Part shown: piece by piece, positions 1,101 through 16,901 of the stretch
Layout: each line of letters starts with the position of its first letter
Numbering within the stretch: the stretch's first letter is position 1
Assembly (NCBI GenBank): GCA_963749455.1
Contig: CAVVMX010000006.1
Span: 125,769-157,768, forward strand
DNA length: 32,000 nt
Source of the DNA: an uncultured Chloroflexia bacterium
GTDB taxonomy: Bacteria > Chloroflexota > Anaerolineae > JAAYZQ01
Direction: 5' to 3'
The notes under the pieces: model-generated
Seen by the model: the letters and a program-made list of their open reading frames with translations, nothing else
The model's database searches: none
Told to the model about the DNA's origin: nothing
Translations under genes and position numbers: made by a program

Positions 1101-1129
1101 TTGACATTTCTCCGGCGCTATGCTACACT
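1101..1129 (+). promoter_or_regulatory. sigma-70-type promoter candidate for the riboswitch/ECF operon
   Basis: TTGACA (1101-1106), 17-nt spacer, TACACT (1124-1129) preceded by TGC (extended -10-like TGCTACACT). Sits about 28 nt upstream of the aptamer P1. Confidence 0.4.
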
Positions 1130-1156
1130 GTCGATAACTTAACAACCGAGCTTGCA

Positions 1157-1291
1157 GCATCTTCGAGCCTCGCCGCCTAAAGGCCTGCGCCCCTTGTCAG
1201 TGTTAGCAAGGGAACAGGGCAGGCCCATGGTACGAGGCCGGTAGGGTATCGCTGGAAACGGCGATGCCTCCCATGCTTGGAAAGGAGATGC
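1157..1291 (+). promoter_or_regulatory. candidate molybdenum/tungsten cofactor (Moco/Tuco) riboswitch aptamer
   Basis: P1 GCAUCUUC (1157-1164) pairs with GGAGAUGC (1284-1291). GAGCCUCG follows the P1 5' strand, and GCCUCCC (1266-1272) plus GGAAAGGAG (1279-1287) match my recollection of the conserved Moco motif cores. Internal helices: GCCUCG 1167-1172/CGAGGC 1233-1238; GCCUGC 1183-1188/GCAGGC 1219-1224 enclosing CCCUUG 1191-1196/CAAGGG 1207-1212; AUCGCU 1248-1253/GGCGAU 1260-1265. Genomic context is Mo/W-related. Confidence 0.6.
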
Positions 1292-1311
1292 GCCGATCAG
1301 GACCGTGGGCG

Positions 1312-1335
1312 CGGCGTCTCCAAGACGCCGTTTTT
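1312..1335 (+). terminator. intrinsic terminator 1 (riboswitch expression platform)
   Basis: Stem CGGCGUC (1312-1318)/GACGCCG (1324-1330), 5-nt loop, then UUUUU (1331-1335). Its 5' strand GCGUCUCC (1314-1321) can pair instead with the P1 3' strand GGAGAUGC (1284-1291). Confidence 0.6.
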
Positions 1336-1392
1336 CTTGCCCCGACAGGCCTGCCCGTGGAGATCCCCTTTTGGGATGAGTGTCACCGGCAG

Positions 1393-1428
1393 AAACGGCG
1401 TCTCCCTTCCGAGACGCCGTTTTTATTT
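1393..1428 (+). terminator. intrinsic terminator 2 (second, longer copy of the same hairpin)
   Basis: 12-bp stem AAACGGCGUCUC (1393-1404)/GAGACGCCGUUU (1411-1422), loop CCUUCC, U-run UUUUUAUUU. Located 20 nt upstream of the S-component ATG. Confidence 0.65.
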
Positions 1429-1447
1429 GTGCCCGAGGGGGAGCTGG

Positions 1448-2022
1448 ATGGGGCAGAGACGCACCTACTTTTCTACTCGCGACCTGTTGATGATGGCCGC
1501 GCTGGCCGCCTTGGGTGGGGTGGTCAGTACCTATATCAACGCCATCGGCGACTTCTTCCAGTCGATCTTGGGCTTTGCCGGGACCACCCAGTGGGCGGCC
1601 GGCCTGCACGTGTTGTGGCTCACCCTGGCCGTGGGGCTGACCCGCAAGCAGGGGGCCGGGACCGTCACCGGCATCCTGAAGGGCGGCGTCGAGCTGCTCA
1701 CCGGCAATACCCACGGCCTGCTGATCGTGCTGGTCGACGTGGTGGCCGGGCTGCTGGTCGACCTGGGCTTTCTTCCCTTCAGGAACAAGGACTCGCTGCC
1801 CGCCTACTGCCTGGCCGGCGGGCTGGCTTCGGCCTCCAACGTCTTTGTCTTTCAGCTCTTCGCCTCGCTGCCCGCCGACACGCTGGCCTACGGGGTGATG
1901 CTGCTGGTGGGAGGCGTCGCCTTTCTGTCGGGCGTCGTCTTTGCCGGGGTCCTGGGCTGGGTCGCTGCTCAATGCTCTGCGCCGGGCCGGGGTGGTCAAA
2001 GATCGCTCGCCGGTCCCCATGA
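1448..2022 (+). pseudogene. ECF transporter S (substrate-capture) component, frame-shifted near ~1960; C-terminal boundary uncertain
   Basis: ATG 1448 preceded by GAGGGGGA. MGQRRTYFSTRDLLMMAALAALGGVVSTYINAIG... with 5-6 hydrophobic helices. After the frame change it reads GSLLNALRRAGVV, which parallels LTLAALRKAGFF of the second S component at 30478. A TGA at 2020-2022 overlaps the next ATG (ATGA) but lies in a third frame, so the gene is either fused to the next one or carries a second indel. Confidence 0.7.
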
Positions 2023-2812
2023 GCCGCCGGGTGTACCCCATCTTCCTGGTCGTCGCCGTGCTGCTCACCGTGGCTCTGACCCTCTATCTGCGTGTGGCCC
2101 TGCGCGGCCCGGCGACCGTCCACATCGGCGGCGCAGTGGCGGCCGCCTACGACTATCCCAAGGAGCATGGCGACATCGCCGCGATCACGCGCCGAAGGCA
2201 CTCTGCGCGAGGTGACCGGCCGCTACAACGGCATCCCGGTGCAGGAGCTGCTCGCCCGCGCCCAGCCCCAGGCCGGCGCCTCGCTGCTCCTCGTCCGGGG
2301 CTCTGACGGCTATGCCTTCTTTATCAGCATGGACGAGGTGCGCGACAACAGCGGCCTGCTGCTCTCCCCGCAGGGGCAAGGCGACGACGCGGCCTACAAC
2401 CTCGTCGGCGCCAAGAACTCCAAGGCCTGGGTGCGAGGCGTGAGTGAGCTGGTCGTCGTCGGCTCGGCGACGCTCGAGGTGAGCGGCGCGCTGGACAAGC
2501 CTGTCGCTCTACGATCCTGACGACTGGCAGTTCGAGATGGACAGCACCCGCCTGGACGTGGGCGACGGCCCGCACAAGTACCAGGGCGTGCCCCTGGGCC
2601 AGGTGCTCCAGGCGATGGAACCACAGGCCGGGGCGACGACGGTGGTGGTCTACACCGGCGGCGAGCCGGTGTCGCACCCCTTGGCCGAAGTGCTGGGCGA
2701 CAACGACCTGCGCCTCTTTACGATCATCGGCGAGTCGGACGTGACCTTTGCCCTGGCCCGCATGGACGGCCAGGTGCTTGCCGCCCGAGTGACGCGCATC
2801 GAGGTCCGCTAG
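2019..2812 (+). pseudogene. membrane-anchored protein with two extracytoplasmic molybdopterin-oxidoreductase-like domains (ECF accessory candidate); frame-shifted
   Basis: N-terminal TM MSRRVYPIFLVVAVLLTVALTLYL. Domain 1: TLREVTGRYNGIPVQELLARAQPQAGASLLLVRGSDGYAFF...WVRGVSELVVVG. Domain 2: WQFEMDSTRLDVGDGPHKYQGVPLGQVLQAM...ARVTRIEVR. Frame changes near ~2190 and ~2509. Confidence 0.6.
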
Positions 2813-2818
2813 CCGCAG

Positions 2819-4318
2819 ATGATCGCCATCGAGGGGTTGAGCTTCCGCTTCCAGGGCAGCCACCGCTATGCCCTGCGCGACGTGAACCTGACGATCCAGG
2901 CCGGCGAGTTCCTGGTCATCACCGGGCCGTCGGGCTGCGGCAAGTCCACCCTGGCGCTGGCCATCGGCGGCTATCTGTTCCGGCAGTACGACGGTGAGGC
3001 CGAGGGCACTGTGACCGTGGCCGGGATCGACGTGCGCCGCCAGCCGATCTACGACGTGGCCGAGATGGTCGGGCTGGTGCAGCAGAACCCGGAGGCCCAG
3101 TTCTGCACCCTCACCGTGCAGGACGAGGTGGCCTTTGGCCTGGAGAACCGCTGCCTGCCCCCCGCCGAGATCCGGGAGCGGGTCGCCTGGGCGCTGGGCA
3201 TCGTCGGCGCGGAGCACCTGGCCGACCGCTCTCTGGCTACCCTGTCCGGCGGAGAGAAGCAGAAGGTGGCCATCGCGGCGATGATGGCCGCCAGGCCGCA
3301 GGTGCTCATCTTTGACGAGCCGACCTCCAACCTGGACCCGACGGCGACGGCCGAGGTGTTCAGGGTGATCGAGCAGATCCGGGCCGAGGCCGGCATCACC
3401 GTCGTCGTCATCGAGCACAAGGTGGACTATTTGCTGCCGTTTGCGCCGCGCCTGGTGGCGATGGACGGCGGGCGGATCGTCTACGATGGGCCGCTGAACA
3501 CAGCTATCGGCCGTCAGCCGTCAGCCGCCAGCAACAAGGGCGCACGGCGCGCAACAGCTCCCACGGAGCGACGGGCGCAACACGCCCACAGGGTGCGCCC
3601 TGCGTTCGCGTCGAGGACCTGCACATCGGCTACGACGGCCAGCCGGTGCTGCCGGGCGTTTCCCTGGAGGTCTATTCCGGCGAATTCGTGGCGGTGATGG
3701 GCGACAACGGCTGCGGCAAGACCACCCTCCTGCTACAGCCTGCTGGGCCTGATCAAGCCGGACCAGGGCCGGGTCGAGGTCCTGGGCCAGGACACCCGCC
3801 AGGTGCCGGTCTCGCACCTGGCCCGCCAGGTGGGGTTTGTCTTTCAGAACCCGGACCACCAGCTCTTCGCCGACAGCGTCTGGGACGAGGCCACGTTCGC
3901 CTCCTCCAACTTTCAGACTGCTTGACGGCGCGACCGAGGCGCGGGTGGGCGAGCTCCTGGCGCGCTGTGGGCTGGGCGACCGTCGCGATGACCATCCCTA
4001 CCGGCTCAGCTACGGCGAAAAGCGCCGCCTGAACCTGATCTCGGTGCTGGCCCATGGCCCCAAGCTCGATCCTGCTGGACGAGCTGCTCATCGGCCAGGA
4101 CGCCGGCAACGCCGCCTTTCTCCTGGACCTGCTGCGCGAGCGGGTGGAGCAGGGCGACGTGGTGATCATGGTCAACCACGCCCCCGAGGTCACGCGCTCG
4201 CTACGCCAGCCGGCTGATCTTCTTGGACGGCGGCCGGGTCGCCGTCGACGCGCCGCCCGAGCTTGCCTTTGAGCAGTTGGCGGCGATGGGCAGAGAGGCC
4301 TATGTCCCCCATGCGTAG
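2819..4318 (+). pseudogene. ECF transporter duplicated ATPase (EcfA1-EcfA2 fusion type), at least 5 frame changes
   Basis: Domain 1 is intact: GPSGCGKST (Walker A), LSGGEKQKVAIA (signature), LIFDEPTSNLD (Walker B). Domain 2 reads across frames: GDNGCGKTTLL / YSLLGLIKPDQGRVEVLG...FVFQNPDHQLF / LSYGEKRRLNLISVLAHGPKL / ILLDELLIGQD...VIMVNHAPE / RYASRLIFLDGGRV...HA-stop at 4316-4318. Frame changes at ~3500-3600, ~3733, ~3915, ~4068 and ~4195. Confidence 0.9.
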
Positions 4319-5078
4319 CAGGGCGCAGCGCATCACCTATCAGCCCGGCCACTCGGTCCTCCACCGCCTGCACCCGCTGGTCAAGATGGCCTGGCTGCTC
4401 TTCGGGACCGTCCTGGTTTTTGTCGTCCGCAGCCCGTGGGTGGTCTTGGCTGCGGTGGCCCTGTTGGTGCTGGCTTTTCCCCTGGCCGGGCTGCGCCTGG
4501 GCCGCGTGCGCGGGACGCGGCTGTTCGTCACTACCGCCCTGCTGCTGGGGCTGCTGCAGATCCTCTTTGTCCACGAAGGGGAGACGCTCTTGCAGATCGG
4601 GCCGCTGGCCATCACCGTGGGTGGGCTGCAGGCCGCGGTCTATGTCGCCGGGCGCTTCCTGAGCGTCATCCTGCTGAGCTACCTCTTTGTCCTGACCACC
4701 GAGCCCAACGACCTGGCCTACGCGCTGATGCGCGCCGGCGTGCCCTACCGCTACGGCTTTGCCCTGATCACGGCCCTGCGCCTGGTGCCGGTCTTTGAGC
4801 AGGAAGGGCAGACCGTCTACCACGCCCAGCTGGCGCGCGGGGTGCAGTATGACGTCCGCAGCCCGCGCCGCTTTGTGACCCTGGCCCGCCAGTTCTTCCT
4901 GCCGCTGCTGGTCTCGGCGCTGGGCAAGGTGGATGCCCTGGCCGTGTCGATGGAAGGCCGCTGCTTTGGCAAGTACCCCACCCGCACCTTTCTGCGCGAG
5001 GTGCACGCCACCCGGCTGGATGGGCTGGCCCTTGGCCTGCTGCTGGCCGCTGCTGTGGCTGCGGCTCTGATTGGATAG
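4311..5078 (+). CDS. ecfT: ECF transporter T (transmembrane, CbiQ-family) component
   Basis: Intact ORF. MRSRAQRITYQPGHSVLHRLHPLVK..., multi-TM, with the conserved ARG motif region LMRAGVPYRYGFALITALRLVP and AQLARGV. ATG 4311 overlaps the ATPase stop; ATG 4302 is an alternative start. Confidence 0.9.
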   Translation: MRSRAQRITYQPGHSVLHRLHPLVKMAWLLFGTVLVFVVRSPWVVLAAVALLVLAFPLAGLRLGRVRGTRLFVTTALLLGLLQILFVHEGETLLQIGPLAITVGGLQAAVYVAGRFLSVILLSYLFVLTTEPNDLAYALMRAGVPYRYGFALITALRLVPVFEQEGQTVYHAQLARGVQYDVRSPRRFVTLARQFFLPLLVSALGKVDALAVSMEGRCFGKYPTRTFLREVHATRLDGLALGLLLAAAVAAALIG

Positions 5079-5120
5079 ATCGTAGGGCAGCTTCGGAGGT
5101 GGCTGCCAGGAGGTTTGCGA

Positions 5121-6026
5121 ATGTCGATGGTGGCTGGTTCTGATCGTCGTGGTGGCGCTGATAGTGGGCGGCGCGGCTGTGGCGGTGGCCATGGGCGCCC
5201 GAGCCCTGGCGCCGGCGCGGGCGGTCCTTCACTTTCCGTGGACCATGCTGGCCGACGAGGCAGCGACGATGAACGACTGCGTCGAATGCCACGAGCCGGA
5301 CAAGTTCCATAGCTGCGCCACCTGCCACGACGAGCACGGCTCGGCCGAGATGGCCAAGGTGCCCTTTAACCAGTTGGTGCTGCTGGCCGGCGATCTGCCC
5401 GAGCCGGGCTATATCGCGGTCAACGACATCCTGCCCTACCGCGACCAGCCCGGCACCCAGGTGGCCCTGCTCGACCTGTCTGGCAGAGCAGGGCGTGACC
5501 GATTTCGAGCGCGTGACCCTGGCCTCCAGCGACGGCGGCGTTGTGACGATCGAGCAGCCCAACCTGACCCAGTCGGCCCTGCTCATGCCCCACGTCGACG
5601 GGATGCGCTTTGCCGACGAGAGCCTGCACGTCTCCACCTGGCTGAAGGGCATCTCGCGCATCGTCGTCGTCGGCGTGGACAAGCCGCTGACCATCGACGG
5701 CCAGTCCACCTCCATCGGGCGGCTCCTGCTGCGGGCCACCCGCTCGGCCATCACCGGGCAGACCGAGGTGATGTTCAAGAGCGAGGACGACGGGCAGGTC
5801 CGCAAGGCCAAGACGGCCTCGCGCATCGAGGGCGCGCCGATAGAGGACCTGGTCGGGTTTTAACGCGATCCTGGTGCGCGATGCCCAGGGACAGGAGCAC
5901 GCCCTATCTGCCGACGAGGCTGAGGGGGCGATCCTGGCCCAGATCGATGGGCGGATTGTCCTGGTCCTGCCGGGGCGAGGGCAGCCGCAGTGGATTCTTG
6001 ACGTCGTCGAGATTACCTCTCGCTGA
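5121..6026 (+). pseudogene. membrane-anchored dihaem c-type cytochrome fused to two molybdopterin-oxidoreductase-like domains; frame-shifted
   Basis: AGGAGG lies 7 nt before ATG 5121. TM segment LVLIVVVALIVGGAAVAVAMG. Two CXXCH motifs (CVECH, CATCH) within NDCVECHEPDKFHSCATCHDEHGS. Then ...ALLDLLAEQGVTDFERVTLASSDGG...WLKGISRIVVVG and a second domain ending WILDVVEITSR-stop at 6024-6026. Frame changes near ~5130, ~5479 and ~5861 (a TTTT run). Confidence 0.65.
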
Positions 6027-6052
6027 CAGAGTAGGCCCGATTGAGGGAAATC

Positions 6053-7227
6053 ATGCTCAAGCGACAGATTCAGAGGACGAGGGCTGCTGATCATAGCCCT
6101 GGCGCTGCTGGCCGTGGCCCTGGTGCTGCTGGTCGCCCTGGTAGTCTTGGGGCGGTCCTGGCAGGCCGAGGTCATCGGGCCGGATGGCGTTCCCTTTCCG
6201 GTGGATGCCAAGGTCCTGGAAAGCCTGGACGACCCGGACGAGGAGGACCTGGGGGTCCCCGTGGACCAGCTACTGTGGGCAGCCGGGCTACCAGGCCGTC
6301 GAGCGGGTGATCGCGACCGGCCCTGACGGAACGCGCCGCGAGTTCGAGTGGCCCGCCGTGGCCGACGATGCCTGGTGGCTGGAAAACGGCAAGCTGTCTA
6401 TCGCCGGGGAGACGTTCGCCGTCTCCCGCCTGGAGGCCGAGCCGTCGCCTCTGCTCGGCCAGGTCCAGGCCCGCATCACCGACATTGCGCCGACGGCCGC
6501 GGCTGCCCTGGGGCTGCCGGCCCTGGCCCAGGCCACCGGACAGCCGCTGCAAGACCTCTCGGCCCGCCACGTGCTGATCCTGCTGCTGGACGGCCTGGGC
6601 TACCAGCACTACGTCGAGGCCCGGCAGGAGGGGCTGACTCCCAATCTGGCCGCCCTCGGCGAGCCGCTGCTGGGCCTGACCACCTACCCGCCCGTCACCA
6701 GCGTCTCGATGGCCTCGCTCCTGACCGGCGCGCCGCCGCAGGTGCACGGCGCTTGTCGCCGTGGCATACGCCAGACCGAGGCCGAGACCCTCTTTGATGC
6801 GGCCAGCGCCGCCGGCCTGTACGTCGTGGCCGTCGAAGGCGAGTCGCTGCCCTTCAACCTGCGCAACGCCGAGATCCGGCTCTCGGGCGACCGGGATGGG
6901 AACGGCAGCACCGACGACAATGTCCTGGCCAACGCCCTGGCCGCGCTGGATGCGGGGATGCCGGACCTGCTGTACGTCCATTTTCACGGCATCGACGACG
7001 CCGAGCACACCTACGGCCCCGGCGCCCCGGAGGAATTGGCGGCCGTCCGCGAGGTGGACTCGGCCGTCGGCCAGATAATCGAAGCGCTTCCAGAGGACAC
7101 ACTGATCCTTATCCTGGCCGACCATGGCCAGCACCTGGTCGAAGCGGATGAAGAAGGGAGGGTTGGCAATCACGGATCTCTGATCGAGTCAGATATGTTC
7201 ATTCCCATCTGGGTCGTAAAAAAGTAG
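6053..7227 (+). pseudogene. membrane-anchored alkaline-phosphatase-superfamily protein (type I phosphodiesterase/nucleotide pyrophosphatase type) with an N-terminal extracytoplasmic domain; frame-shifted
   Basis: GAGGGA lies 5 nt before ATG 6053. TM LLIIALALLAVALVLLVALVVL. NPP-type motifs: LLLDGLGYQHY, TTYPPVTSVSMASLLTGAPPQVHG (nucleophile Thr region), HFHGIDDAEHTYGP, LILADHGQ. Frame changes near ~6080 and ~6283. Confidence 0.75.
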
Positions 7228-7253
7228 ACCAATCGCCAAAAAAGGAGGAGGCT

Positions 7254-8104
7254 ATGTTGAGAAAAGCTGGTATGATTCTAGTGTTGCTCACGCTCGTGAG
7301 CCTGGTCGGCTGTGGCAGCTCGGCTCCGAAAGTGGACTGGACGCTCAAGGTCGGCGGCGCGGTGAGCTCGCCGCTGTCTGTGACCTTTGCCGATCTGGCC
7401 AAGATGCCCCAGACCGATCTGAAGGACATCCTCATGGAGAAAGTCGCGGGGCGAGGATACTACCGGCTCCTGGAGCGGCGTGCTGTTGACCGATCTCCTG
7501 ACCAAGGCCGGCGCCGGGGAGTATGCCACCATCACCGCCGTAGCCGGCGACGGCTATGCCATCGAGGTCAACAAGGACGAGCTGGAGAACGCCATCGTCG
7601 CTCTGAAAGAGAACGGCAAGTGGATCGCCGAGACCGACCCGGATCACGGCCCCATCCGCCTGGTCACCCCCAAGACCCCGGCCAACCGCTGGGTGTTCCA
7701 GCTCCAGGAGATCCAGGTCAACCAGGAGGGCGGCAGCGGCGTCCCGGCCAACGCCGCGCTCAAGGTCACCGGCAACGTAAAGGTCGAGGTCGGCTGGACC
7801 GAGGAGAAGGTCCGCTCCATGGACACCATCCAGGCCGAGTCCACCAACAAGCAGGGCGAGACCAAGACCTACACCGGCGTCCTGCATCAGCGACCTGCTG
7901 GGCAAGGCCGATCCCAAGGACGACGCGACGACGCTGGTCTTTGTCGCCGACGATGGCTTTACCGCCGAGGTGCCCCTGGCCGATGTCGAGGCGTGCCAGG
8001 ACTGCATCGTCTCGTTCCGCGACGGGGGCGGCTTTAGCACGGTCCTGCCCGGCTTTGCCAGCGGCGTCCAGGTCAAGGGCGTGGTCGAGATCCAGGTCAA
8101 GTAA
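7254..8104 (+). pseudogene. lipoprotein with two molybdopterin-oxidoreductase-like domains; frame-shifted
   Basis: AAGGAGGAGG RBS. Lipobox LVSLVGCGS. VDWTLKVGGAVSSPLSVTFADLAKMPQ... GSWSGVLLTDLLTKAG...GPIRLVTPKTPANRWVFQLQEIQV. The second domain ends VLPGFASGVQVKGVVEIQVK. There is no Cys at the position of the Mo-ligand Cys. Frame changes near ~7448 and ~7888. Confidence 0.7.
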
Positions 8105-8131
8105 GAGGGAGGTCCAACTATCGACGAGTTT

Positions 8132-8834
8132 GTGCGTGGCCTGGCCGAGGCCTTTCGCCTGATCGGTACCCTCGACCCGGCTCTGCTCGAGATCGTGGCG
8201 CTGTCGCTGCGGGTGTCGGGCATAGCGCTGCTGATCAGTGCCCTCATCGGCATCCCCCTGGGTGCCCTGATGGGCCTGAGCCGCTTCCGTGGGCGCAAGC
8301 TGCTCATCGCCCTGCTCTACACCGGCATGGGCTTTCCGCCGGTGGTGGTCGGGCTGTTCGTCTACCTGATGCTGTCCCGCAGCGGTCCTTTCGGCCAGCT
8401 CAACTCGCCGCTCATCCCCGACGCTGTTCACCCCCGGGGCAATGGTTGTCGCCCAGACGATCATCTCCTTTCCCCTGGTGGCCGGCTTTACCATGGCTGC
8501 CGTGATGGGCGTCGATCCCTACCTCCGCCAGCAGGTCCAGGCGCTGGGCGCCACCCGCTGGCAGACCGTGCTGTCGGTGTTGGCCGAGGCCCGGATAGGG
8601 GTGATCGTGTCGATCATCGCCGGCTTTGGCAGCATCATCTCTGAGGTGGGCGCGGTGATGCTGGTCGGTGGCAACATCGAGGACTCGACCCGGGTGCTGA
8701 CCACCGCCATCGTGCTCGAGACCCGCCAGGGGGACTTTGACCTGGCGATGGCCCTGGGCGTCATCCTGCTGAGCATCTCCTTTCTGACCAACGTGGTGAT
8801 GCTCCGCTTGCAGGGGAGGACCTTCGACGAATGA
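8132..8834 (+). pseudogene. tupB: tungstate ABC transporter permease (TupB-like), one frame change near ~8425
   Basis: ...LLEIVALSLRVSGIALLISALIGIPLGALMG...then LFTPGAMVVAQTIISFPLVAGF...ALGATRWQT...MLVGGNIEDSTRVLTTAIVLETRQGDF. The SD GGAGG (8108-8112) is spaced for codon 8120 (ATC, sequence IDEFVRGLAEAF), so the true start may lie upstream of the GTG at 8132. Confidence 0.75.
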
Positions 8835-9563
8835 GCGACATCGTCTACCACCTCGAGCAGGTCACCAAATCGTACAATGGCCGCCGTGTGCTGCAGGTCG
8901 ATTCCCTCGACATCCGGCGGGGGGAGATCCTGGCCGTGGTCGGCCCCAGCGGCGCCGGCAAGAGCACCTTGCTGCGCCTCCTCAACTTCCTGGAACCGCC
9001 CACCAGCGGCTCCATCCGCTTCCTGGACTCTGAGTTCAGCCCCAATCGGACGCCGCCTCTCGATCTGCGCCGCCGGGTGACCACCGTCTTCCAGCGGCCC
9101 ATCCTGCTCAACCGGACTGTGTGGGCCAACGTCGCTTATGGGCTGCAAGCTGCGCCGCCAGCGGCAGTTCGACGGCCAGGTACAGGCGGCGCTGGAGCAG
9201 GTCGGCCTGACCTCCATGGCCCGCCAAAGGGCGCGCACCCTGTCGGGGGGCGAGGCCCAACGGGTGGCTCTGGCCCGGGCGATGGTCCTCCAGCCTGATG
9301 TGCTGCTGCTGGACGAGCCGACGGCCAACCTGGACCCCTACAATGTGGGGCTGATCGAAGAGATCGTGCACACGCTGAACGCCGAGCAGGGTACCAGTCT
9401 GGTCCTGGTGACCCACAATGTGTTCCAGGCCAAGCGGCTGGCCCACCGGGTTGCCCTGTTCCTGGAGGGTCAGATCGCCGAGATCGCCGATGCAGAGACG
9501 TTCTTTGGATCGCCGCGCGATCCACGCACCGCCGCCTTTGTGCGGGGTGAAATGGTGTACTAG
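8831..9563 (+). pseudogene. tupC: tungstate ABC transporter ATP-binding protein (TupC-like), one frame change near ~9146
   Basis: ATGA overlap with tupB. GPSGAGKSTLLR, LSGGEAQRVALARAM, LLLDEPTANLD, VLVTHN. Confidence 0.8.
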
Positions 9564-9593
9564 AAGAAGCAAACACAAAAAAGAGGAGGAAAA

Positions 9594-11279
9594 ATGTCCA
9601 AGAAACTGATTTCCGTGTTGCTCATGTCGGCCCTGCTGGTTGGCCTGTTGGCCACGCTCGGTGGCTGCGGAGCCACCCCAGCGCCGACCAAGGTGCCCGA
9701 GCAGCCGACGGTCGCGCCGACGACCGCGCCGACGACCGCCGCCGAGGCGGCAAAGCTGATCCTGGCCACCACCACCAGCACCGCCGACTCGGGCCTGCTC
9801 GATTTCATCCTGCCTGACTTTGAGCAGGCCAACAACGTCAACGTAGAAGTGATCGCCGTCGGCACCGGCCAGGCGATTGAGATCGGCAGCAAGGGCGACG
9901 CCGACGTTCTGCTCGTCCACAGCCGCAAGTCCGAGGACAAGTTCGTCGCCGACGGATATGCCAAAGAGCGCTTTGACGTGATGTACAACGACTTTGTCAT
10001 CGTCGGCCCCACGAGCGATCCGGCCAAGATCGGCGGCATGACCATCTGCAGTCGACGCCCTCAAGGCGATTGCCGGCGCGGAGGCCACCTTTGTCAGCCG
10101 GGGCGACAAGTCGGGCACCAACACCAAGGAGCTGAGCCTGTGGAGCTCGGCGGGCATCACCCCGACGACCGACATGCCCTGGTACCAGTCGATCGGCCAG
10201 GGCATGGGCGACACGCTGCTCTTCTCGCAATGAGCAGCAGGGCTACACCCTCACCGATCGGGGCACCTACCTGTCGATGCGGGACAAGCTGCCCGATCTG
10301 CCGATCCTGGTCGGCGGACAGACGCTGACCGACAACGTAGACAAGAAACTGCTCAATCCCTACGGCGTGATGGCGGTCAACCCCGACAAGCTCCCTGTGA
10401 CCAAGTATGACCTGGCCATAAAGTTCGTGGAGTGGATCCTGTCGCCCGAGGTCCAGGCCAAGATCGGCGGCTATGGCGTGGACAAGTTCGGCCAGCCGCT
10501 GTTCTACCCCGGCGCGCCGCCCAGCACTCCGGCGCCCGCTGCTCGCCGCCCTCAAGATGACCGGCCCTGCCCTGGAAGTGAGCTGGACTGAGGAGCAGCT
10601 CAAGGCCCTGGGCACCATCGACGTCGACTATACCGGCAAGGACGGCACGACGACGACATACACCGGCGTGCTCATCACCAAGCTGCTCGAAGAGGCCAAG
10701 GCCCCGGCCGACGCCGCCGGCCTGGTCCTGGTAGCCAGCGATGCCTACACCGCTGACGTGGCCATGGCCGACGTACAGGGCTGCGCCGATTGCATCGTCG
10801 CCTTTGACCCGAACGGCGGCCTGCGATCCGTCCTGCCCAGCCTGTCGGGCAAGGCCCAGGTCAAGAACCTGGTCGAGATCCAGGTCCAGGGCGGCGCCGC
10901 CGCGGCGGCCGGCGGAATCCCGGACAACGCCGCGCTCAAGATCACCGGCAAGGTGGCCACGCCGATCGGCTGGACCGAGGAAGTGGTGCGGGCGATGAAG
11001 ACCATCGACGCCCAGTCCACCAACAAGGACGGCCAGACCGAGACCTACACCGGCGTCCTGATCACAGACCTGCTGGCCCTGGCCGGCCCGGCGAGCGACG
11101 CGACGACGCTGGTCTTTGTCGCCGATGACGGCTTTACCGCCGAGGTGCCCCTGGCCGACGTGCTGGCCTGCGCGGATTGCATCGTCTCCTTCCGCAGCAA
11201 GGGCGGCTTTAGCACGGTGCTGCCCGGCTTCTCCGGCAACGCCCAGGTCAAGGGCGTAGTCGAGATCCAGGTGAAATAG
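9594..11279 (+). pseudogene. tupA: tungstate-binding lipoprotein TupA fused C-terminally to two molybdopterin-oxidoreductase-like domains; 3 frame changes
   Basis: GAGGAGG RBS. Lipobox LATLGGCG. TupA motifs: LATTTSTADSGLLD, FVSRGDKSGTNTKE, WYQSIGQGMGDTL, YTLTDRGTY, NPYGVMAVNP. No stop separates these from LAALKMTGPALEVSWTEEQL...CADCIVAF...VKNLVEIQVQ and NAALKITGKV...CADCIVSF...VKGVVEIQVK. Frame changes near ~10047, ~10230 and ~10525. Confidence 0.8.
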
Positions 11280-11294
11280 CAGCCGAAAACCTGC

Positions 11295-11330
11295 CCGGCC
11301 CAGCACTCAGCCCATTGGGTGCTGGGCCGG
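11295..11330 (+). terminator. stem-loop after the tupA fusion gene (terminator candidate without a U-tract)
   Basis: 12-bp perfect stem CCGGCCCAGCAC (11295-11306)/GTGCTGGGCCGG (11319-11330) with a 12-nt loop, 16 nt after the stop codon. Confidence 0.45.
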
Positions 11331-11412
11331 CAACTACAAAAGATCCTTCGCCGTCGGCTTGCAGGTTCTGATCAACCCGGCTCCGTAGAACGCAAATCGG
11401 ACTCCCCACCAT

Positions 11413-11441
11413 TTGACAGCTTCACAGTTCTTTGCTAGAAT
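11413..11441 (+). promoter_or_regulatory. near-consensus sigma-70 promoter of the yhfZ-like operon
   Basis: TTGACA (11413-11418), 17-nt spacer, TAGAAT (11436-11441), within an AT-rich intergenic patch. Confidence 0.6.
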
Positions 11442-11460
11442 ATACAATGTACTATATTCT
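11437..11460. promoter_or_regulatory. inverted-repeat operator candidate overlapping the -10 element
   Basis: AGAATATA (11437-11444), N8, TATATTCT (11453-11460). The 8-bp arms are perfect. Confidence 0.4.
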
Positions 11461-11541
11461 GCATTTTGTATGACCGGTCGAGCGAGGGCGATGATTACAG
11501 ATCTGCTCCTGCCTCTTGTGTCGAAACAGGGAGTGGCCGTC

Positions 11542-12429
11542 ATGAAACTGGCCACACTGCTCCTCATTCACCAGCGAGGAGACCGAATCCAGCCTGTCCA
11601 ACAGTACGCTGAGGAGCTGGGAACAGGAGTGGGCACGATCCAGGCAGCCCTGGCCTACCTCCAGGAAATCGGGGCGGTCGACCTCGAGAGCCGGGGGCAC
11701 CTGGGTACATTCATCCGTGAGATCGACTACCCTCTCATCTGGTCCCTCACCGGACAAAACCAGATCGTGGGTGGCATGCCGCTGCCCTATTCCCGCCGAT
11801 ATGAGGGTCTGGCCACCGCACTCCACGAGGCATTTCGCCGGGCCGAAATCACCCTGAACCTCGTCTACACGCGCGGCGCCCTGAACCGCCTGCGTGCCTT
11901 GGAGGGAGGCAAGTTCGACTTTATCGTCCTATCGCGTTTCGCGCTGAGCAACGCTATCGAGCGAGAGTTGGCGGTCGAGGAAGTGCTGGGCCTCGGCGGC
12001 GAGTCTTACGTGGGGCAGCACGTTATTCTACTAAGAGACCGGGACCAGCAGGAGATCGTGGATGGAATGAGGGTTGGCATCGACCCGTCGTCCATCGATC
12101 AGGTCCTCCTGGCCAAGGAAGCCTGCCGTGGCAAGGACGTCGAGTTTGTCGAGGTTGGCTACATGAACCTGATGGCAGCTCTGGGCAAGGGACAGATCGA
12201 CGCCACCGTCTGGAATCAGGATGACTTTAGCACCTCGGCTCACCCATTCAAGGCGGTGCCCCTTGCGTTGCGCGACCTTGACCAGGCGCACGACAACACA
12301 GAGGCGGTCATTGCCGTGCAGAAGGGCAACCGGCTGGCCCTTCAAACCCTGAGGGTGATCATCGAACCGGAGACGATCCGCGACATCCAGCGGCAGGTGA
12401 TGGAAAACCGGCTCGTGCCGGCCTATTGA
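11542..12429 (+). CDS. yhfZ: YhfZ-family transcriptional regulator (N-terminal HTH plus periplasmic-binding-protein-like C-terminal domain)
   Basis: ATG 11542 with GGGAG about 8 nt upstream gives 295 aa. QQYAEELGTGVGTIQAALAYLQEIGAVDLESRGHLGTFI is HTH-like. The rest resembles my recollection of YhfZ, and the gene neighbourhood is yhf-type. The 11413 start in the ORF track lies inside the promoter, and the in-frame ATGs at 11470 and 11491 lack good SDs. Confidence 0.7.
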   Translation: MKLATLLLIHQRGDRIQPVQQYAEELGTGVGTIQAALAYLQEIGAVDLESRGHLGTFIREIDYPLIWSLTGQNQIVGGMPLPYSRRYEGLATALHEAFRRAEITLNLVYTRGALNRLRALEGGKFDFIVLSRFALSNAIERELAVEEVLGLGGESYVGQHVILLRDRDQQEIVDGMRVGIDPSSIDQVLLAKEACRGKDVEFVEVGYMNLMAALGKGQIDATVWNQDDFSTSAHPFKAVPLALRDLDQAHDNTEAVIAVQKGNRLALQTLRVIIEPETIRDIQRQVMENRLVPAY

Positions 12430-12469
12430 AGGTCCAAGTCCGGACTTGTTGCTTCCGCAGAGGACAGAA

Positions 12470-13681
12470 ATGCGTGCATCGAGCCAGGCACCGAAACCCA
12501 GCAAAATCCTGCTACGCGCCCATGAGCTCGCGCCGGCGCTGGTCGACATCCGCCGCACGCTGCACCGCCACCCTGAGCTCGGCTTCGAAGAGCGCTGCAC
12601 CGCGGCCCTCGTCGCCTCCAAGTTGCACTCGCTGGGCATCCGTGTCGAGACGAACGTCGGTATAACGGGCGTGGTGGGTCACATCGGCACGGGGGGCCCT
12701 ATTGTCGCCCTGCGGGCCGACATGGACGCTCTCCCTATCCAAGAGCTGAACCAAACGCCGTATGCCTCTGAGGTGCCTGGGATCATGCACGCCTGTGGTC
12801 ACGACGCCCACACGGCCTGTTTGCTGGGGGCCGCCACCATCCTCCAGGAGATCAAGCTCGACGGACAGGTGCGCCTGATTTTCCAGCCCTCAGAAGAAGG
12901 CATGGACAAAGAGGGCAAGAGCGGGGCCATGCGCATGGTCGAGGAGGGGGTCGCGGACGGCGTGCAGGCCTTTTTCGCCCTGCACGTGGACAGCGACTAC
13001 CACTCCGGCACGCTGGCGTGCTCACCGGGCTATGTGCTGGCTGCCATGGACACCCTTGTCATACAGGTCATGGGTACGGCGGCACACGGTGCCCAGGCCT
13101 ATCTGGGGGTAGATGCAGTGCTGCTGGCATCCCAGGTAATCGGCGCGCTGCACACAGTGGTCTCGCGGCGCATTTCGCCCCTGGACAGCGGCGTCATATC
13201 GATCGGCCTGATCCACGGCGGGACAAAGGAGAACATTCTGGCCGAACAGGTAGAGCTGCGCGGCACGGTTCGCAGCTTCAAGCCCGAGGTGCGCCAGGCG
13301 CTGCTCCGCGAAATCGACCGCGTGTGTGGGATAACCCGTGCTGTGGGGGGCGACTATCGCCTCTCCATCTGGCACGGGTACCCCGCACTGCACAACGATC
13401 CGAGCCTGACGGCGTTTGCCGTGGAGGCTCTGACCGGCCTGATCGGAAGCGAGGCGCTACTTCCCCTGGAACCCGAGATGGGCTCCGAGGATTTCAGTTT
13501 CTTTGCGCAGCGGGCGCCGGCATGCTACATGTCGCTCGGCGTCCGGTCCCCAGGACAGCCCATGCGCCCGGCGCACCATCCCGGCTTTGACATTGACGAA
13601 TCGGCCCTGCCGCTGGGAGCCGCCAGCCTGGCCCACCTTGCCGTCGGCTACCTGAATGCTCGGCCGCACGAGGGACAGTAG
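12470..13681 (+). CDS. M20D-family amidohydrolase (N-acyl-amino-acid/hippurate hydrolase type)
   Basis: GAGGA lies 5 nt before ATG 12470. HRHPELGFEE, ALRADMDALPIQE, MHACGHDAHTACLLGAA, FQPSEEG, IHGGTKENILAEQVELRGTVR. Confidence 0.9.
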   Translation: MRASSQAPKPSKILLRAHELAPALVDIRRTLHRHPELGFEERCTAALVASKLHSLGIRVETNVGITGVVGHIGTGGPIVALRADMDALPIQELNQTPYASEVPGIMHACGHDAHTACLLGAATILQEIKLDGQVRLIFQPSEEGMDKEGKSGAMRMVEEGVADGVQAFFALHVDSDYHSGTLACSPGYVLAAMDTLVIQVMGTAAHGAQAYLGVDAVLLASQVIGALHTVVSRRISPLDSGVISIGLIHGGTKENILAEQVELRGTVRSFKPEVRQALLREIDRVCGITRAVGGDYRLSIWHGYPALHNDPSLTAFAVEALTGLIGSEALLPLEPEMGSEDFSFFAQRAPACYMSLGVRSPGQPMRPAHHPGFDIDESALPLGAASLAHLAVGYLNARPHEGQ

Positions 13682-13689
13682 AGGAAACC

Positions 13690-14103
13690 ATGGCCTTTGA
13701 GGAACGGTTCCGGCTTCTGATCGCGAGTGGGCAGGCCAGCGAGCGGACCGTCGCAGCTGCCCGCGCTGCCCTTGGGGAGGTGGAGGCGCACTACCAGATC
13801 CTTCTCTGCGAACAAGTGGGTGCCTCGCTGGCCACGCACATCGCGGTCACCATGAAGCGCCTGTTGGACGGGGAAGCGTTGACCCAGGCCCCCGACACCG
13901 TCTGGAGCGAGCTCACGGCCTGGCCCGAGGAGGTGGCGCTGGCTACCTCCGTCGTGCACGGGCTGTGCAGAAGGCTGCGCCACTCCATCGCGCGGGACGA
14001 GGTCGGGTTTATCGCCCTGCATCTGTGCCGGATCCGGGCTGCAACCCTGCTGGCAGCCGAGGAGCCCGGCACAGCGGGGACTGCCGGTGAGGTGAGTGCA
14101 TGA
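13690..14103 (+). CDS. yhfY: stand-alone PRD-domain protein (YhfY-like)
   Basis: 137 aa. ...VGASLATHIAVTMKRLLDGEAL...RDEVGFIALHLCRI is a typical PRD helix pattern with conserved His residues. First gene of the translationally coupled block. Confidence 0.7.
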   Translation: MAFEERFRLLIASGQASERTVAAARAALGEVEAHYQILLCEQVGASLATHIAVTMKRLLDGEALTQAPDTVWSELTAWPEEVALATSVVHGLCRRLRHSIARDEVGFIALHLCRIRAATLLAAEEPGTAGTAGEVSA

Positions 14104-14474
14104 TACGCATCAACGTCGGGGGACTGGCAGCCAAAGAGATCGCTGCCCTGGCTGCTCAGGTCGGAGGAGGCCAGGTCGAGGTGCAGGTAGGGACCGACAT
14201 TGTCGGGGCGCAGCAGGTCGCCATGGGAATGGCCGACTACTATTTCGGCGCCTGCGCCACCGGCCGGGGAGGTGCTCTGGCGATGGCCATGGCCCTCCTG
14301 GGCGTTTCGAAATGCTTCACTGCCAGCACGACCGGCCGGCCGCCCAAGGAGCAAGAGGTCCGGGAAGCCGTCGCTGCCGGCAAGAAGGCGTTCGGTTTCA
14401 CCACCGATCACGTGGATGTGGCTGTGCCTATGATCGTCAAGGCCATCCTGGCCGGGCGCCGCCACGAGGCCTAG
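14100..14474 (+). CDS. yhfU: YhfU-like protein (DUF2620 family)
   Basis: ATGA overlap with the PRD gene. 124 aa: MIRINVGGLAAKEIAAL...MADYYFGACATGRGGALAMAMALLG.... Size, position and sequence fit YhfU. Confidence 0.65.
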   Translation: MIRINVGGLAAKEIAALAAQVGGGQVEVQVGTDIVGAQQVAMGMADYYFGACATGRGGALAMAMALLGVSKCFTASTTGRPPKEQEVREAVAAGKKAFGFTTDHVDVAVPMIVKAILAGRRHEA

Positions 14475-14519
14475 CGCGCTGCGCCGGCGTCTGCGGGCCG
14501 AGTTCGAGGGGACCAAGCA

Positions 14520-15803
14520 ATGTCATCGACAACCATCGTGCTGATGGCTGTTGCGGGTGCCATAGGGGCCGCCCTGGCCAATCGGGGCGTTGCCGTGTTC
14601 CACGACGGACTCCGCGCCCTCGTACCAGAGCTGCTCGAGGGTCGCCTGCAGCGTAAGGAGTTTGGCGCCCTCGCCTCTAGCATGAGCTTTGGGTTGCTCG
14701 TCGGCTATGGCCTGCCGTTCTCGGTCGTGTCGGGGGTGGTCCTCTATCACAGCCTTTGGCTCGGAACAGATATCATCGGCGCACGGTTTCCCGGCCCGAC
14801 TGGATCTGGCCGGCAAGATCACAGCAGGGAGCTTCTAGGTCTGATCGGCGCCGCGCTCGCCGGTTGTCTCTACGGGGCCCTGCTGGCGGCAGGGCTGGCG
14901 GGCGTGCGCTGGCTCTTCTCGCACCTCCCCATCCCGATCCAGGGTTCCCTTCAGGAGATGGGGGCGCCGATCGTCCTGGCCTTTGCCATGTTCCCTGCCG
15001 TTGCTGTGGCCTGCCAGCACGGCGCCAGACACGGGGTGCTTGTGTTCCTTCTTACGCTGTTGGCACGGCATATCGCGAGCAGCCTGGGATTGGCCGGGCC
15101 CGACGCCTGGGCACTGGGCGTGGGCATGGCTACGTTGGTGATCTATGCCCTTCTGGCTCAGAAGCGCAGCCGGCCGGCCCAGGGCATGGTGCCGATTCCG
15201 ACCCAGGGCGCGGCTCGAATCCGCCGCCATCTGCCCTCGATCGTGCTGCTGGGTGCGGTCTATGGCCTAATCTGCAGCCAGGCGGTCATGATGGAGAGCC
15301 CACAGTCACTGCTTGCCCTCGGCCAGGGGGATCGGGCGACCGCGATCGGCGTCACAATCGCGCGTGGGTTGTGCTTTACCCCTCAAAAGACGATGTCGGC
15401 TGCGGCTACTGGCGTGTTCGCCCTCGACGGCTTTGGCTTTGTGGCGGCGGCAGGATTGCTCGCCCCAAATGCGTGGAGCGCGGCTCTGGCCGGAGCGATC
15501 GTCATGGGCCTCGAGGCGCTGAGCTTGGTCGCACTGTCTCGGCTGCTGTGCCGCTGGCCGGTTCTGTCCCAGACGGCCGACGCCATGCGCACCGCCATGA
15601 CTAAACTGCTCGAGATCGCCTCGATGGTGGGCGGTATGCTTGCGGCGAACAGCCTGAAGCCTGGCCTGGGGTTTGCAGCGGTGGCCGGCCTGTATGCGCT
15701 CAACGAGGTGTCCGGCTTGCCCATCACGCGTGCTGCCGCCGGCCCGGTGGCCATCCTCCTGTTTGGCCTGGGGCTTAACCTGTTCGCATGGATCACGGGA
15801 TAG
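14520..15803 (+). CDS. yhfT: YhfT-like polytopic inner-membrane protein (putative transporter)
   Basis: 427 aa with at least 10 hydrophobic segments. The N-terminal ...RGVAVFHDGLRALVPELLEG... resembles the YhfT N-terminus as I recall it. Confidence 0.7.
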   Translation: MSSTTIVLMAVAGAIGAALANRGVAVFHDGLRALVPELLEGRLQRKEFGALASSMSFGLLVGYGLPFSVVSGVVLYHSLWLGTDIIGARFPGPTGSGRQDHSRELLGLIGAALAGCLYGALLAAGLAGVRWLFSHLPIPIQGSLQEMGAPIVLAFAMFPAVAVACQHGARHGVLVFLLTLLARHIASSLGLAGPDAWALGVGMATLVIYALLAQKRSRPAQGMVPIPTQGAARIRRHLPSIVLLGAVYGLICSQAVMMESPQSLLALGQGDRATAIGVTIARGLCFTPQKTMSAAATGVFALDGFGFVAAAGLLAPNAWSAALAGAIVMGLEALSLVALSRLLCRWPVLSQTADAMRTAMTKLLEIASMVGGMLAANSLKPGLGFAAVAGLYALNEVSGLPITRAAAGPVAILLFGLGLNLFAWITG

Positions 15804-15805
15804 CG

Positions 15806-16900: not shown

Positions 16901-16901
16901 G

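Follow-up and report, generated by a model that had tools for sequence, protein, structure and literature searches.

Overview of the locus

The region analysed is a stretch of 32,000 nt from contig CAVVMX010000006.1 (assembly GCA_963749455.1, positions 125,769-157,768, forward strand), belonging to an uncultured member of the Chloroflexota (Anaerolineae). This whole stretch is called the window, and coordinates are window positions. Close to its beginning, a leader RNA of the Moco (molybdenum cofactor) RNA motif lies between a promoter and a series of genes encoding an energy-coupling factor (ECF) transporter and several extracytoplasmic proteins. The leader was confirmed to be a genuine Moco RNA motif riboswitch rather than a chance resemblance, and the locus as a whole is probably best explained as an OFF switch, of the subclass lacking the P3 element, placed before an importer whose proposed substrate is a molybdopterin-type compound. 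The features of the leader were as follows:

1101-1129, plus strand: sigma-70-type promoter, with TTGACA, a 17-nt spacer and TGcTACACT (extended -10); promoter scan, 10 of 12 matches with TG
1149-1303, plus strand: Moco RNA motif aptamer, P3-lacking subclass, with a P1-to-P1 core at 1157-1291; RF01055 match and covariation
1157-1164, plus strand: P1 5' strand, GCAUCUUC; pairs with 1284-1291 in the minimum-energy fold
1167-1239, plus strand: P2, with a distal hairpin insertion of 36-40 nt; Rfam alignment (36-nt insertion in the P2 loop) and covariation
1244-1269, plus strand: P4 hairpin, with its GAAA tetraloop at 1255-1258; minimum-energy fold, GGAAAC invariant
1279-1295, plus strand: switching strand GGAAAGGAGAUGCGCCG, comprising conserved core, then the P1 3' strand (1284-1291), then 4 nt; invariant in eight close leaders
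1311-1336, plus strand: terminator T1, with a 9-bp stem (1311-1319 with 1323-1331), CCA loop and U-run; terminator scan, hairpin -14.9 kcal/mol
1395-1428, plus strand: terminator T2, with a 10-bp stem (1395-1404 with 1411-1420), CCUUCC loop and U-run; hairpin -19.0 kcal/mol, conserved columns

Identity and architecture of the aptamer

A first-pass annotation of this DNA had described a multi-helix RNA of 135 nt, closed by P1 and carrying GAGCC, GCCUCCC and GGAAAGGAG, and every one of these elements was recovered in place. P1 is formed by GCAUCUUC (1157-1164) and GGAGAUGC (1284-1291), which make 8 bp including one U.G wobble and enclose 135 nt; GAGCC stands directly after the P1 5' strand (1165-1169), GCCUCCC at 1266-1272 and GGAAAGGAG at 1279-1287. 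Comparison with the Rfam covariance model, which the annotation had suggested as a check, gave a significant match: RF01055, the Moco RNA motif, was matched over the full model (1-135) at 1149-1303 on the plus strand, with 67.6 bits against a gathering score of 36 (E = 1.9e-14). This was the sole Rfam match across the whole 32 kb. With a covariance model built here from homologous leaders, the window aptamer scored 105.5 bits.

The unconstrained minimum-energy structure of the aptamer (RNAfold) contained P1, P2, P4 with its GAAA loop, and P5. The core elements CGAGCC, GCCUCCC and GGAAAGGAG, the GAAA tetraloop and the CCUAAA/CAUGG receptor were all present, in columns that were invariant or nearly so. 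The receptor-like sequences are held by P2 (CCUAAA at 1176-1181, CAUGG at 1226-1230), and a tetraloop-receptor contact is predicted; the P2 insert ranged in length from 4 to 113 nt among relatives. As an RNA, the element is unremarkable within its established riboswitch class.

Homologous leaders and covariation

The S component of the transporter has relatives in many metagenomes, and homologous loci were collected by a protein search with it, taking one genome per GTDB species; this produced 80 loci, almost all from Anaerolineae. Locus counts below are given over 81 loci, which are named L001, L002 and so on. The covariance model was built from 19 upstream sequences and, when run on the window and the 81 loci, returned 75 matches. 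By this model, about 69 of 81 Anaerolineae species-level genomes carry the motif immediately before the S gene and in the same orientation, and two more (L008 and L010) have it 3.4 kb upstream. RF01055 itself was found in the same position in 18 of the 20 loci tested with Rfam (53-86 bits), and likewise in L001 and the more distant L085.

Among 73 distinct sequences, 93.3% of cells were paired, against approximately 41% when the partners were slid by 1-3 columns. Both sides were altered in 19 of 30 pairs; P2 covaried at 8/8 pairs and P4 at 6/9, while P1 was mostly invariant, with covariation limited to two outer pairs. A model-independent alignment (MAFFT/RNAalifold) agreed with this result, showing compensatory changes in 17 of the 30 pairs. 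The helices P1, P2, P4 and P5 are therefore supported by compensatory change in relatives, as the first-pass annotation had proposed to establish, P1 being supported through its two outer pairs only.

Absence of P3 and the class of the aptamer

In the Rfam alignment the window RNA has no residues in the P3 columns, and the sequence joining P2 to P4 is just CGGUAG, as it is in about 60 relatives. Only eight S-gene leaders (L001, L003-L006, L009, L019 and L037) have a hairpin, of 31-37 nt, at the P3 position. Moco RNAs were sorted by P3 in Regulski et al. 2008, where those without it (58 of 176) were tentatively assigned to the tungsten cofactor as 'Tuco-type' (PMC2408646). By this rule, which is applied to the sequence, the window RNA is 'Tuco-type', within the Moco RNA family; the absence of P3 places it in a recognised P3-lacking subclass and not outside the family. 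The first-pass annotation had proposed to decide between Moco and Tuco by the presence of P3; this assigned the RNA to the P3-lacking class, with either the tungsten cofactor (W-co) or the molybdenum cofactor (Mo-co) as the possible ligand.

The tungsten assignment is uncertain on three grounds: both aptamer classes occur before orthologous operons, the permease of the operon falls below the TupB cutoff, and P3-less switches in L002 stand before an enzyme of the molybdenum type. P3-containing aptamers precede the same operon in sister genomes, whose S components are 83-85% identical to that of L002 and 87-90% identical to that of the window. The permease, examined in L002, scored 148 bits on TupB where the cutoff is 320, and was a better fit to the generic subfamily NF038017 (252 bits). 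Elsewhere in L002 (5339-5685, minus strand), two complete P3-less Moco riboswitches occur in tandem, each with its own terminator, and precede a gene at 2422-5163 for a MOP-type molybdopterin-dependent aldehyde oxidoreductase (NF045668, 1678 bits). OFF control of a molybdenum enzyme would be surprising, and there are two ways to read this arrangement: either P3-less RNAs sense Moco, or the molybdenum enzyme is an alternative isozyme that is repressed when the tungsten cofactor is plentiful.

A further element was associated with the P3-containing leaders. In seven of the eight (all but L037), an open reading frame of 127 codons lies between the aptamer and the S gene (9604-9987 in L001). It comprises two repeats of approximately 55 amino acids with conserved cysteines (LPCP...CQLG.F), without a match in Pfam or NCBIfam.

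Promoter, terminators and switching

Transcription is predicted to start at approximately 1136-1137. The -35 hexamer and the TGnTAnAnT box were kept in 8/8 close leaders, and the promoter, aptamer, T1 and T2 were together conserved in the eight closest. A terminator in front of the gene, as the first-pass annotation had it, was called independently here as the hairpin at 1311-1331 with its U-run; the segment of the T1 5' arm at 1314-1321 is GCGUCUCC, and UUUUU follows the hairpin. The second terminator, T2, corresponds to the single terminator of most relatives. Both T1 and T2 were present in most of the close clade, L011 had three terminators and more distant leaders had one. Overall, at least one terminator lay between aptamer and gene in 55 of 68 orthologous leaders, and two or three in 8 of the 68.

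The pairing of 8 bp previously proposed between the P1 3' strand and the terminator does exist, one U.G included: GGAGAUGC (1284-1291) and GCGUCUCC (1314-1321) form seven Watson-Crick pairs besides. Across the family, the antiterminator is formed by the aptamer 3' strand, GGAAAGGAG(AUGCGCCG), with the terminator 5' arm and its CCUUUCC loop, and this was the best complement in most of 70 leaders. In the window, the predicted duplex energy was -12.6 kcal/mol for P1, -17.9 for the switching strand with T1 and -22.6 with T2. T2 was the strongest complement of the aptamer 3' strand, at -22.6 to -25.4 kcal/mol, compared with -17.9 for T1.

The two terminators are nearly identical and also complementary to one another. 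The T1 3' arm (1323-1331) and the T2 5' arm (1395-1403) are perfect complements over 9 bp, with a duplex energy of -17.0 kcal/mol, and when the T1 antiterminator was imposed, the folding program itself paired the T1 3' arm with the T2 5' arm. For a transcript ending at 1404, this relayed ON fold had an energy of -126.9, against a minimum free energy of -127.0; for a transcript ending at 1412, the unconstrained fold had P1 open and the aptamer strand on T2. One aptamer could thus govern two terminators through a relay of alternative hairpins.

As a structural argument, these pairings support the view that P1, the antiterminator and the terminator would be mutually exclusive, making a putative OFF switch that acts by transcription termination, and the reading of the element as a riboswitch and OFF switch is very likely correct. 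The ligand-OFF logic of the first-pass annotation stands in kind, given the mutual exclusion and the frequency of terminators among leaders, but it was incomplete: the tandem terminator T2 was missed, and the antiterminator is longer than described and uses the GGAAAGG core. The ligand response and the switching kinetics of the window RNA, as set out below, are predictions from sequence. Transcription would begin at the conserved promoter, near 1137. Binding of Mo-co or W-co would lock P1 (1157-1164 with 1284-1291) and the GGAAAGG core, leaving the terminator arms free to fold, such that RNA polymerase would stop at T1 or, failing that, at T2. When ligand is absent, GGAAAGGAGAUGCGCCG (1279-1295) would pair with a terminator 5' arm; if this were the arm of T1, the freed T1 3' arm would pair with the T2 5' arm and both terminators would be disabled. 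Two terminators in series would be a small but neat illustration of how repression might be tightened with one aptamer.

The spacer between T1 and T2 (1337-1394) contains a small hairpin, GGAGAUCCCCUUUUGGGAU, which was common to L002 only. Its GGAGAU could pair with GUCUCC of T2.

The operon downstream of the riboswitch

The first-pass annotation placed the switch before an ECF transporter, and this was upheld by the presence of PF09819, a double ABC ATPase and a CbiQ-type T component. The target was confirmed, judging from the proteins encoded, as a group I (dedicated) ECF transporter, in which S, a duplicated A and T are encoded together. The genes downstream of the leader were the following:

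1448-2812, plus strand: ECF S component (PF09819, YkoE fold), fused via a seventh transmembrane helix to an extracytoplasmic tandem sulfite-oxidase/PruR-like domain (OxM1); Pfam 69.4 bits, tblastn against intact L001 proteins
2819-4310, plus strand: fused double ECF ATPase (A-A); ABC_tran matches, L002 ortholog 338 bits on TIGR04520 ECF_ATPase_1 (cutoff 315)
4263-5078, plus strand: ECF T component (CbiQ family); PF02361 113 bits, 82% identical to the L001 T component
5149-6020, plus strand: membrane-anchored protein with two CxxCH haem-c motifs (dihaem); tblastn to a 310-aa protein of L001, frameshifted
6150-7227, plus strand: lipoprotein of the alkaline-phosphatase superfamily, type I phosphodiesterase / nucleotide pyrophosphatase family; PF01663 86 bits
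7254-8104, plus strand: OxM2, a lipoprotein with two sulfite-oxidase/PruR-like domains; L002 ortholog PF00174 75 bits, AlphaFold2 and Foldseek
8132-11279, plus strand: TupB/ModB-related oxyanion-type ABC transporter, comprising permease, ATPase and PBP_like_2 binding protein, then a further OxM domain; Pfam

In L002, S-OxM1 is a single open frame of 453 amino acids (8001-9362), and a fusion of about 450 amino acids was present in 75/81 loci; OxM1 of L002 consists of two domains of approximately 120 amino acids each, with a weak match to PF00174. In GTDB, 128 genomes have the S-OxM fusion. The dihaem protein was found in 51/81 loci, always after T, and no family match was found for it in Pfam or NCBIfam. 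The pyrophosphatase-family protein, whose L001 ortholog has the lipobox LAGC, was present in 42/81 loci. Wherever contigs were long enough, the order S-OxM1, A-A, T, dihaem, pyrophosphatase, OxM2 was conserved. The accessory proteins are all extracytoplasmic, judged by their signal peptides and anchors.

The TupB/ModB-like ABC system follows OxM2 only in the closest clade, which includes the window. It is probably part of the same transcription unit as the ECF genes; a scan of 1430-11400 found neither a promoter nor a strong terminator, and the next promoter-like site was at 11413-11441. The transcription unit may therefore extend for approximately 10 kb.

Other arrangements of these modules were observed among the relatives. 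In L008 (4401-7862), and likewise in L010, the riboswitch is followed by a TupB-like permease, an ATPase and a 560-aa fusion of PBP_like_2 and OxM, with S-OxM1 only afterwards. In L065 (11709-12467, minus strand), a separate Moco-motif match (76.7 bits with our own model) stands before a stand-alone, single-domain OxM protein of 154 amino acids (PF00174, 61.7 bits), which sits beside the ECF operon on the opposite strand. In the Planctomycetota, the modules of L082-L084 adjoin several unannotated genes and a divergent NTPase_1/DUF2478 gene.

Beyond the operon, an unrelated cluster at 11413-20700 encodes a YhfZ-like regulator, an M20 peptidase, YhfT, YhfS and YhfX-like proteins, a metalloenzyme-superfamily protein and an MttB-family methyltransferase. 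This is followed by an Opp-type ABC system and PtsI.

Frame-breaking insertions

The window and L002 share 90.4% identity over 9 kb, within which the coding regions of the window have at least 14 isolated +1 G/C insertions, at 1963, 2188, 2506, 3732, 3916, 4068, 4200, 5480, 5854, 6285, 7443, 7884, 8416 and 9145. Each of these shifts the reading frame: S-OxM1 is broken at 1963, 2188 and 2506, A-A at 3732, 3916, 4068 and 4200, and OxM2 at 7443 and 7884. The orthologues are intact in L002 and in most other loci, and contig DAOUGI010000089.1 (72.9-81.7 kb) provides an example of a relative whose operon is uninterrupted. Repeated switches of frame were apparent in a frame plot of third-position GC content (GC3). 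Genes between 11.4 and 26.5 kb are uninterrupted. Frame switching recurs in another ECF-like A-A/T locus, at approximately 27.9-29.9 kb (region 27-31 kb), and nowhere else in the window is GC content as high as in these two affected regions. The leader RNA is free of the insertion anomalies seen in the coding regions downstream.

One explanation of these insertions is that the window element is a relic, an intact riboswitch before a decayed operon, unless the apparent decay is assembly error only. This seems unlikely, though less so than the other alternatives considered below. It is consistent with the density of single-base insertions between 1963 and 9145 when set against the intact L002, and with the frame switches in the GC3 plot beside clean genes at 11.4-26.5 kb. 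Decay is opposed by the nature of the lesions, which are single-base insertions only, with no deletions, large lesions or stop-creating substitutions noticed, by the protein identity to relatives, which stays high in each frame segment, and by the full conservation of the promoter, aptamer and terminators. With insertions as the only type of lesion, the pattern resembles a sequencing, consensus or assembly error more than it does decay, and the recurrence of the same symptom in the GC-rich, ECF-like locus at 27-31 kb suggests an error that depends on composition.

Clues to the substrate

By profile, the S component matched the structure of YkoE (5EDL, E = 1.3e-15), in which thiamine is contacted by Y46, W49, E77, Q95 and D131 (PMC5037267). 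When aligned to 5EDL, the S component has Y46A, W49H (the histidine being invariant), Q95A and D131Q; only Glu77 is kept. The usual annotation of PF09819 proteins as thiamine or hydroxymethylpyrimidine (HMP) transporters was therefore rejected, since four of the five ligands are replaced and the leader is not a thiamine pyrophosphate (TPP) riboswitch. A cobalt transporter, as the Pfam names 'ABC_cobalt' and 'CbiQ' would have it, was also dismissed, because these names are a historical artefact and the solved member of PF09819 binds thiamine.

The OxM domains offer the other clue. In OxM2, the lipobox is conserved, and the molybdenum-ligating cysteine is absent from both domains, with lysine or serine at the position of the sulfite-oxidase cysteine. 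The second OxM domain has an invariant CxxC (ACxDCIV) in all 29 of 29 aligned proteins (window 7254-8104 and 10473-11279), which could be a redox-active disulfide, or else a metal or thiolate ligand. At approximately 125 amino acids, the domain has the size of PruR, and about half that of a catalytic sulfite-oxidase domain. A 91%-identical homologue was modelled with AlphaFold2 (predicted local distance difference test, pLDDT, 85.9), and the model was compared with known structures using Foldseek. The model matched sulfite-oxidase-family enzymes and, at domain size, the PruR structures 7KOM, 7KOS, 7KP2 and 7RKB, with template modelling (TM) scores of 0.66-0.71 and root-mean-square deviations of 3.3-4.0 A; by sequence profile, OxM2 reached 7KOS at E = 2.4e-4. 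PruR proteins are secreted domains of the sulfite-oxidase fold that are without the cysteine and bind free pterins, 7RKB being a complex with neopterin (PMC11194511, PMC13259868). The annotation of OxM in databases as catalytic YedY or sulfite oxidase was set aside, given the missing cysteine, the half-size domain and the Sec/lipoprotein export signal.

Interpretation of the transporter

An OFF switch controlled by a cofactor fits an importer that replenishes the cofactor. When this control is taken together with the PruR-like domains and the extracytoplasmic accessory proteins, salvage of a molybdopterin-type compound is the most economical reading. Readthrough would then express the unit of approximately 10 kb, comprising the ECF importer and the extracytoplasmic proteins, and the unit would scavenge Moco, molybdopterin, cyclic pyranopterin monophosphate (cPMP), or dinucleotide forms after trimming by the pyrophosphatase, when the cofactor pool is low. 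The pyrophosphatase-family lipoprotein would remove the nucleotide from molybdopterin guanine or cytosine dinucleotide (MGD or MCD), and the dihaem protein might keep the pterin reduced. The first-pass annotation had suggested that control of such an importer would imply uptake of molybdenum or tungsten, or of a pterin cofactor or precursor; of these, the pterin branch gains support from the fused PruR-like domain, though we still infer it. A pterin-type substrate, as suggested by sequence and by the fold model, is plausible at somewhat under even chances, and the reading as pterin or cofactor salvage is put forward with similar or slightly greater reserve. With the greater reserve, the locus may be proposed as the first recognisable bacterial system for uptake of a molybdenum or tungsten cofactor or a pterin precursor, namely an ECF transporter with a fused PruR-like capture domain, a secreted pyrophosphatase, a dihaem protein and a second pterin-binding lipoprotein.

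Several observations weigh against molybdopterin-type salvage under an OFF switch. With the terminators completed, the OFF fold was the more stable also when no ligand is present, at -93.0 against -88.4 kcal/mol for a transcript ending at 1331 and at -141.5 against -127.7 for one ending at 1428. Since OFF is the minimum-energy fold of the ligand-free RNA, the ON state must be reached kinetically, during transcription; co-transcriptional capture of the ON state is usual for such switches. The insertions described above mean that the window operon may be non-functional, or its sequence poor. The association of motif and transporter is incomplete, as 11 Anaerolineae loci among the 81 had the ECF-OxM module without a riboswitch by our covariance model. 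Similarly, the Moco motif was not found with the OxM, S, A-A and T modules of the Planctomycetota homologues (L082-L084), so that in these loci the link between riboswitch and ECF transporter did not extend beyond the Chloroflexota. The OFF switches before the molybdenum-dependent aldehyde oxidoreductase in L002 show that OFF control alone does not imply uptake. The fusion of OxM to an oxyanion-type binding protein in L008 would fit a metal-handling role. Finally, the pockets of PruR have been described as too short for Moco (PMC11194511).

The principal alternative for the transporter is that, under the same riboswitch, it imports the metal itself, as molybdate, tungstate or the thio-forms of sulfidic habitats, with OxM acting as modules for metal handling or capture. 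L008 and L010 indeed have OxM fused to a binding protein of the PBP_like_2 (TupA/PstS) type, and in the window OxM comes after such a protein; the invariant CxxC in domain 2 of OxM2 could ligate metal; and ECF systems for cobalt and nickel are generally known. Moco riboswitches also classically control the mod and tup transporters (PMC2408646). Nevertheless, the S component is of the YkoE family and not of the CbiM/NikM metal type, and the solved member of that family has an organic vitamin as its ligand, while the OxM fold forms a site for pterin or molybdopterin in all relatives of known structure. In the closest clade, moreover, the TupB/ModB-like ABC system in the same unit would make a metal-importing ECF redundant, and the nucleotide-pyrophosphatase-family lipoprotein has no obvious role in the uptake of oxyanions. 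Metal import is considered improbable.

It is more improbable still that the OxM and dihaem proteins make up an extracytoplasmic molybdenum or tungsten redox enzyme system, with the riboswitch co-regulating users of the cofactor and the ECF transporter serving some other need, such as the substrate or product of that enzyme. The absence of the molybdenum-ligating cysteine from both domains of OxM2, and a domain size of about 125 amino acids that corresponds to PruR and to half of a catalytic sulfite-oxidase domain, both oppose this, although OxM proteins are annotated as molybdopterin-dependent oxidoreductases (PF00174, 75 bits) and the presence of a dihaem partner points to electron transfer. 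Enzymes that depend on Moco are also known to stand behind Moco riboswitches (PMC2408646), as the aldehyde oxidoreductase of L002 illustrates. Here, however, the lipoprotein/Sec signals are without a twin-arginine motif, so that a cofactor loaded in the cytoplasm could presumably not travel along, and the covalent fusion of OxM1 to the S component in 75/81 loci argues for a role in transport. Export of Moco to load secreted apo-enzymes is unlikely, since the switch would be OFF at high cofactor and ECF systems are importers.

If molybdopterin-type salvage is correct, Anaerolineae would scavenge Moco-type pterins released by neighbouring cells. The operon offers a specific candidate, and one that can be cloned, for the cross-feeding of cofactors within anaerobic communities. 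Textbook accounts of ECF transporters normally give them no extracellular binding domain or binding protein, which an ECF transporter with a built-in extracellular capture domain would contradict. Riboswitches have been reliable pointers to transporter function, and those for TPP, B12, preQ1 and flavin mononucleotide (FMN) each led to importers for the cofactor or a precursor of it. We know of no bacterial transporter for Moco, molybdopterin or cPMP, and in a 2026 review the means by which pterins cross bacterial membranes are given as unknown (PMC13259868).

Comparison with known systems

The published targets of Moco RNAs are moa, mod and tup genes and enzymes of molybdenum or tungsten, with no mention of an ECF transporter (PMC2408646). 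The first-pass annotation had judged the target unusual, and this was consistent with Regulski et al. 2008 and with Sun et al. 2013, in which the uptake categories of riboswitch regulons include no Moco transporter. Full-text literature searches found no link between a Moco riboswitch and an ECF transporter, although an earlier mention in Rodionov et al. 2009 or RegPrecise is possible. No paper on the molybdenum cofactor and ECF transporters was seen to join the two in its title or abstract, and a Dehalogenimonas paper on the Moco riboswitch does not mention an ECF target. The conserved target, an ECF importer with a fused PruR-like domain under a Moco-class switch, is thus apparently undescribed. 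The interest of the locus lies in this target, conserved across dozens of Anaerolineae species, and not in the class of RNA.

The aptamer resembles RF01055 of Escherichia coli moaA, sharing its core, P1, P2, P4 and P5, and a GAAA tetraloop with a receptor of the CCUAAG/UAUGG type (PMC2408646). The moaA RNA, however, has P3 and hides the ribosome-binding site, whereas the window RNA lacks P3 and uses terminators. Repression by the cofactor was reported for the family by Regulski et al. 2008, and examples with intrinsic terminators are included (PMC2408646). In its lack of P3, its terminator platforms and the genes for molybdenum or tungsten transport in its operon, the window RNA resembles the P3-lacking 'Tuco-type' RNAs, among them the triple tandem of Syntrophomonas wolfei (PMC2408646). 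The latter has several aptamers, each with its own terminator, while the window has one aptamer with two terminators and L002 has complete switches in tandem.

In Bacillus subtilis, ykoEDC is controlled by a TPP riboswitch. The window transporter is like YkoEDC, a group I ECF system for thiamine or HMP (5EDL, PMC5037267), in having an S component of PF09819, a fused A-A, a T component and a riboswitch-led operon. It differs in its Moco leader, in the replacement of four of five thiamine ligands, and in possessing an extra transmembrane helix, an extracellular domain of approximately 240 amino acids and four added secreted proteins. Among importers that salvage cofactors under a cognate riboswitch are QueT/QrtT with preQ1 and CbrT with cobalamin. 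The proposed logic is as in those systems, where a riboswitch for the end product represses the importer of the cofactor or its precursor; to our knowledge, no equivalent for the molybdenum cofactor has been described, and we know of no binding domain fused extracellularly to the S components of QueT/QrtT or CbrT.

The OxM domains, finally, are predicted to resemble PruR, as small, secreted domains of the sulfite-oxidase fold without the molybdenum-ligating cysteine, a likeness suggested by both fold and profile. No DcpA-like gene was found in the ECF-OxM operons, so the context differs from that of pruR-dcpA. PruR itself is marked by a PW motif and by a Tyr/Trp sandwich around the pterin. PruR is a signalling partner of DcpA-type enzymes of cyclic di-GMP metabolism in Proteobacteria, whereas the OxM domains are duplicated, anchored to lipid or fused to a transporter, found in Chloroflexota and placed under the control of a Moco riboswitch.

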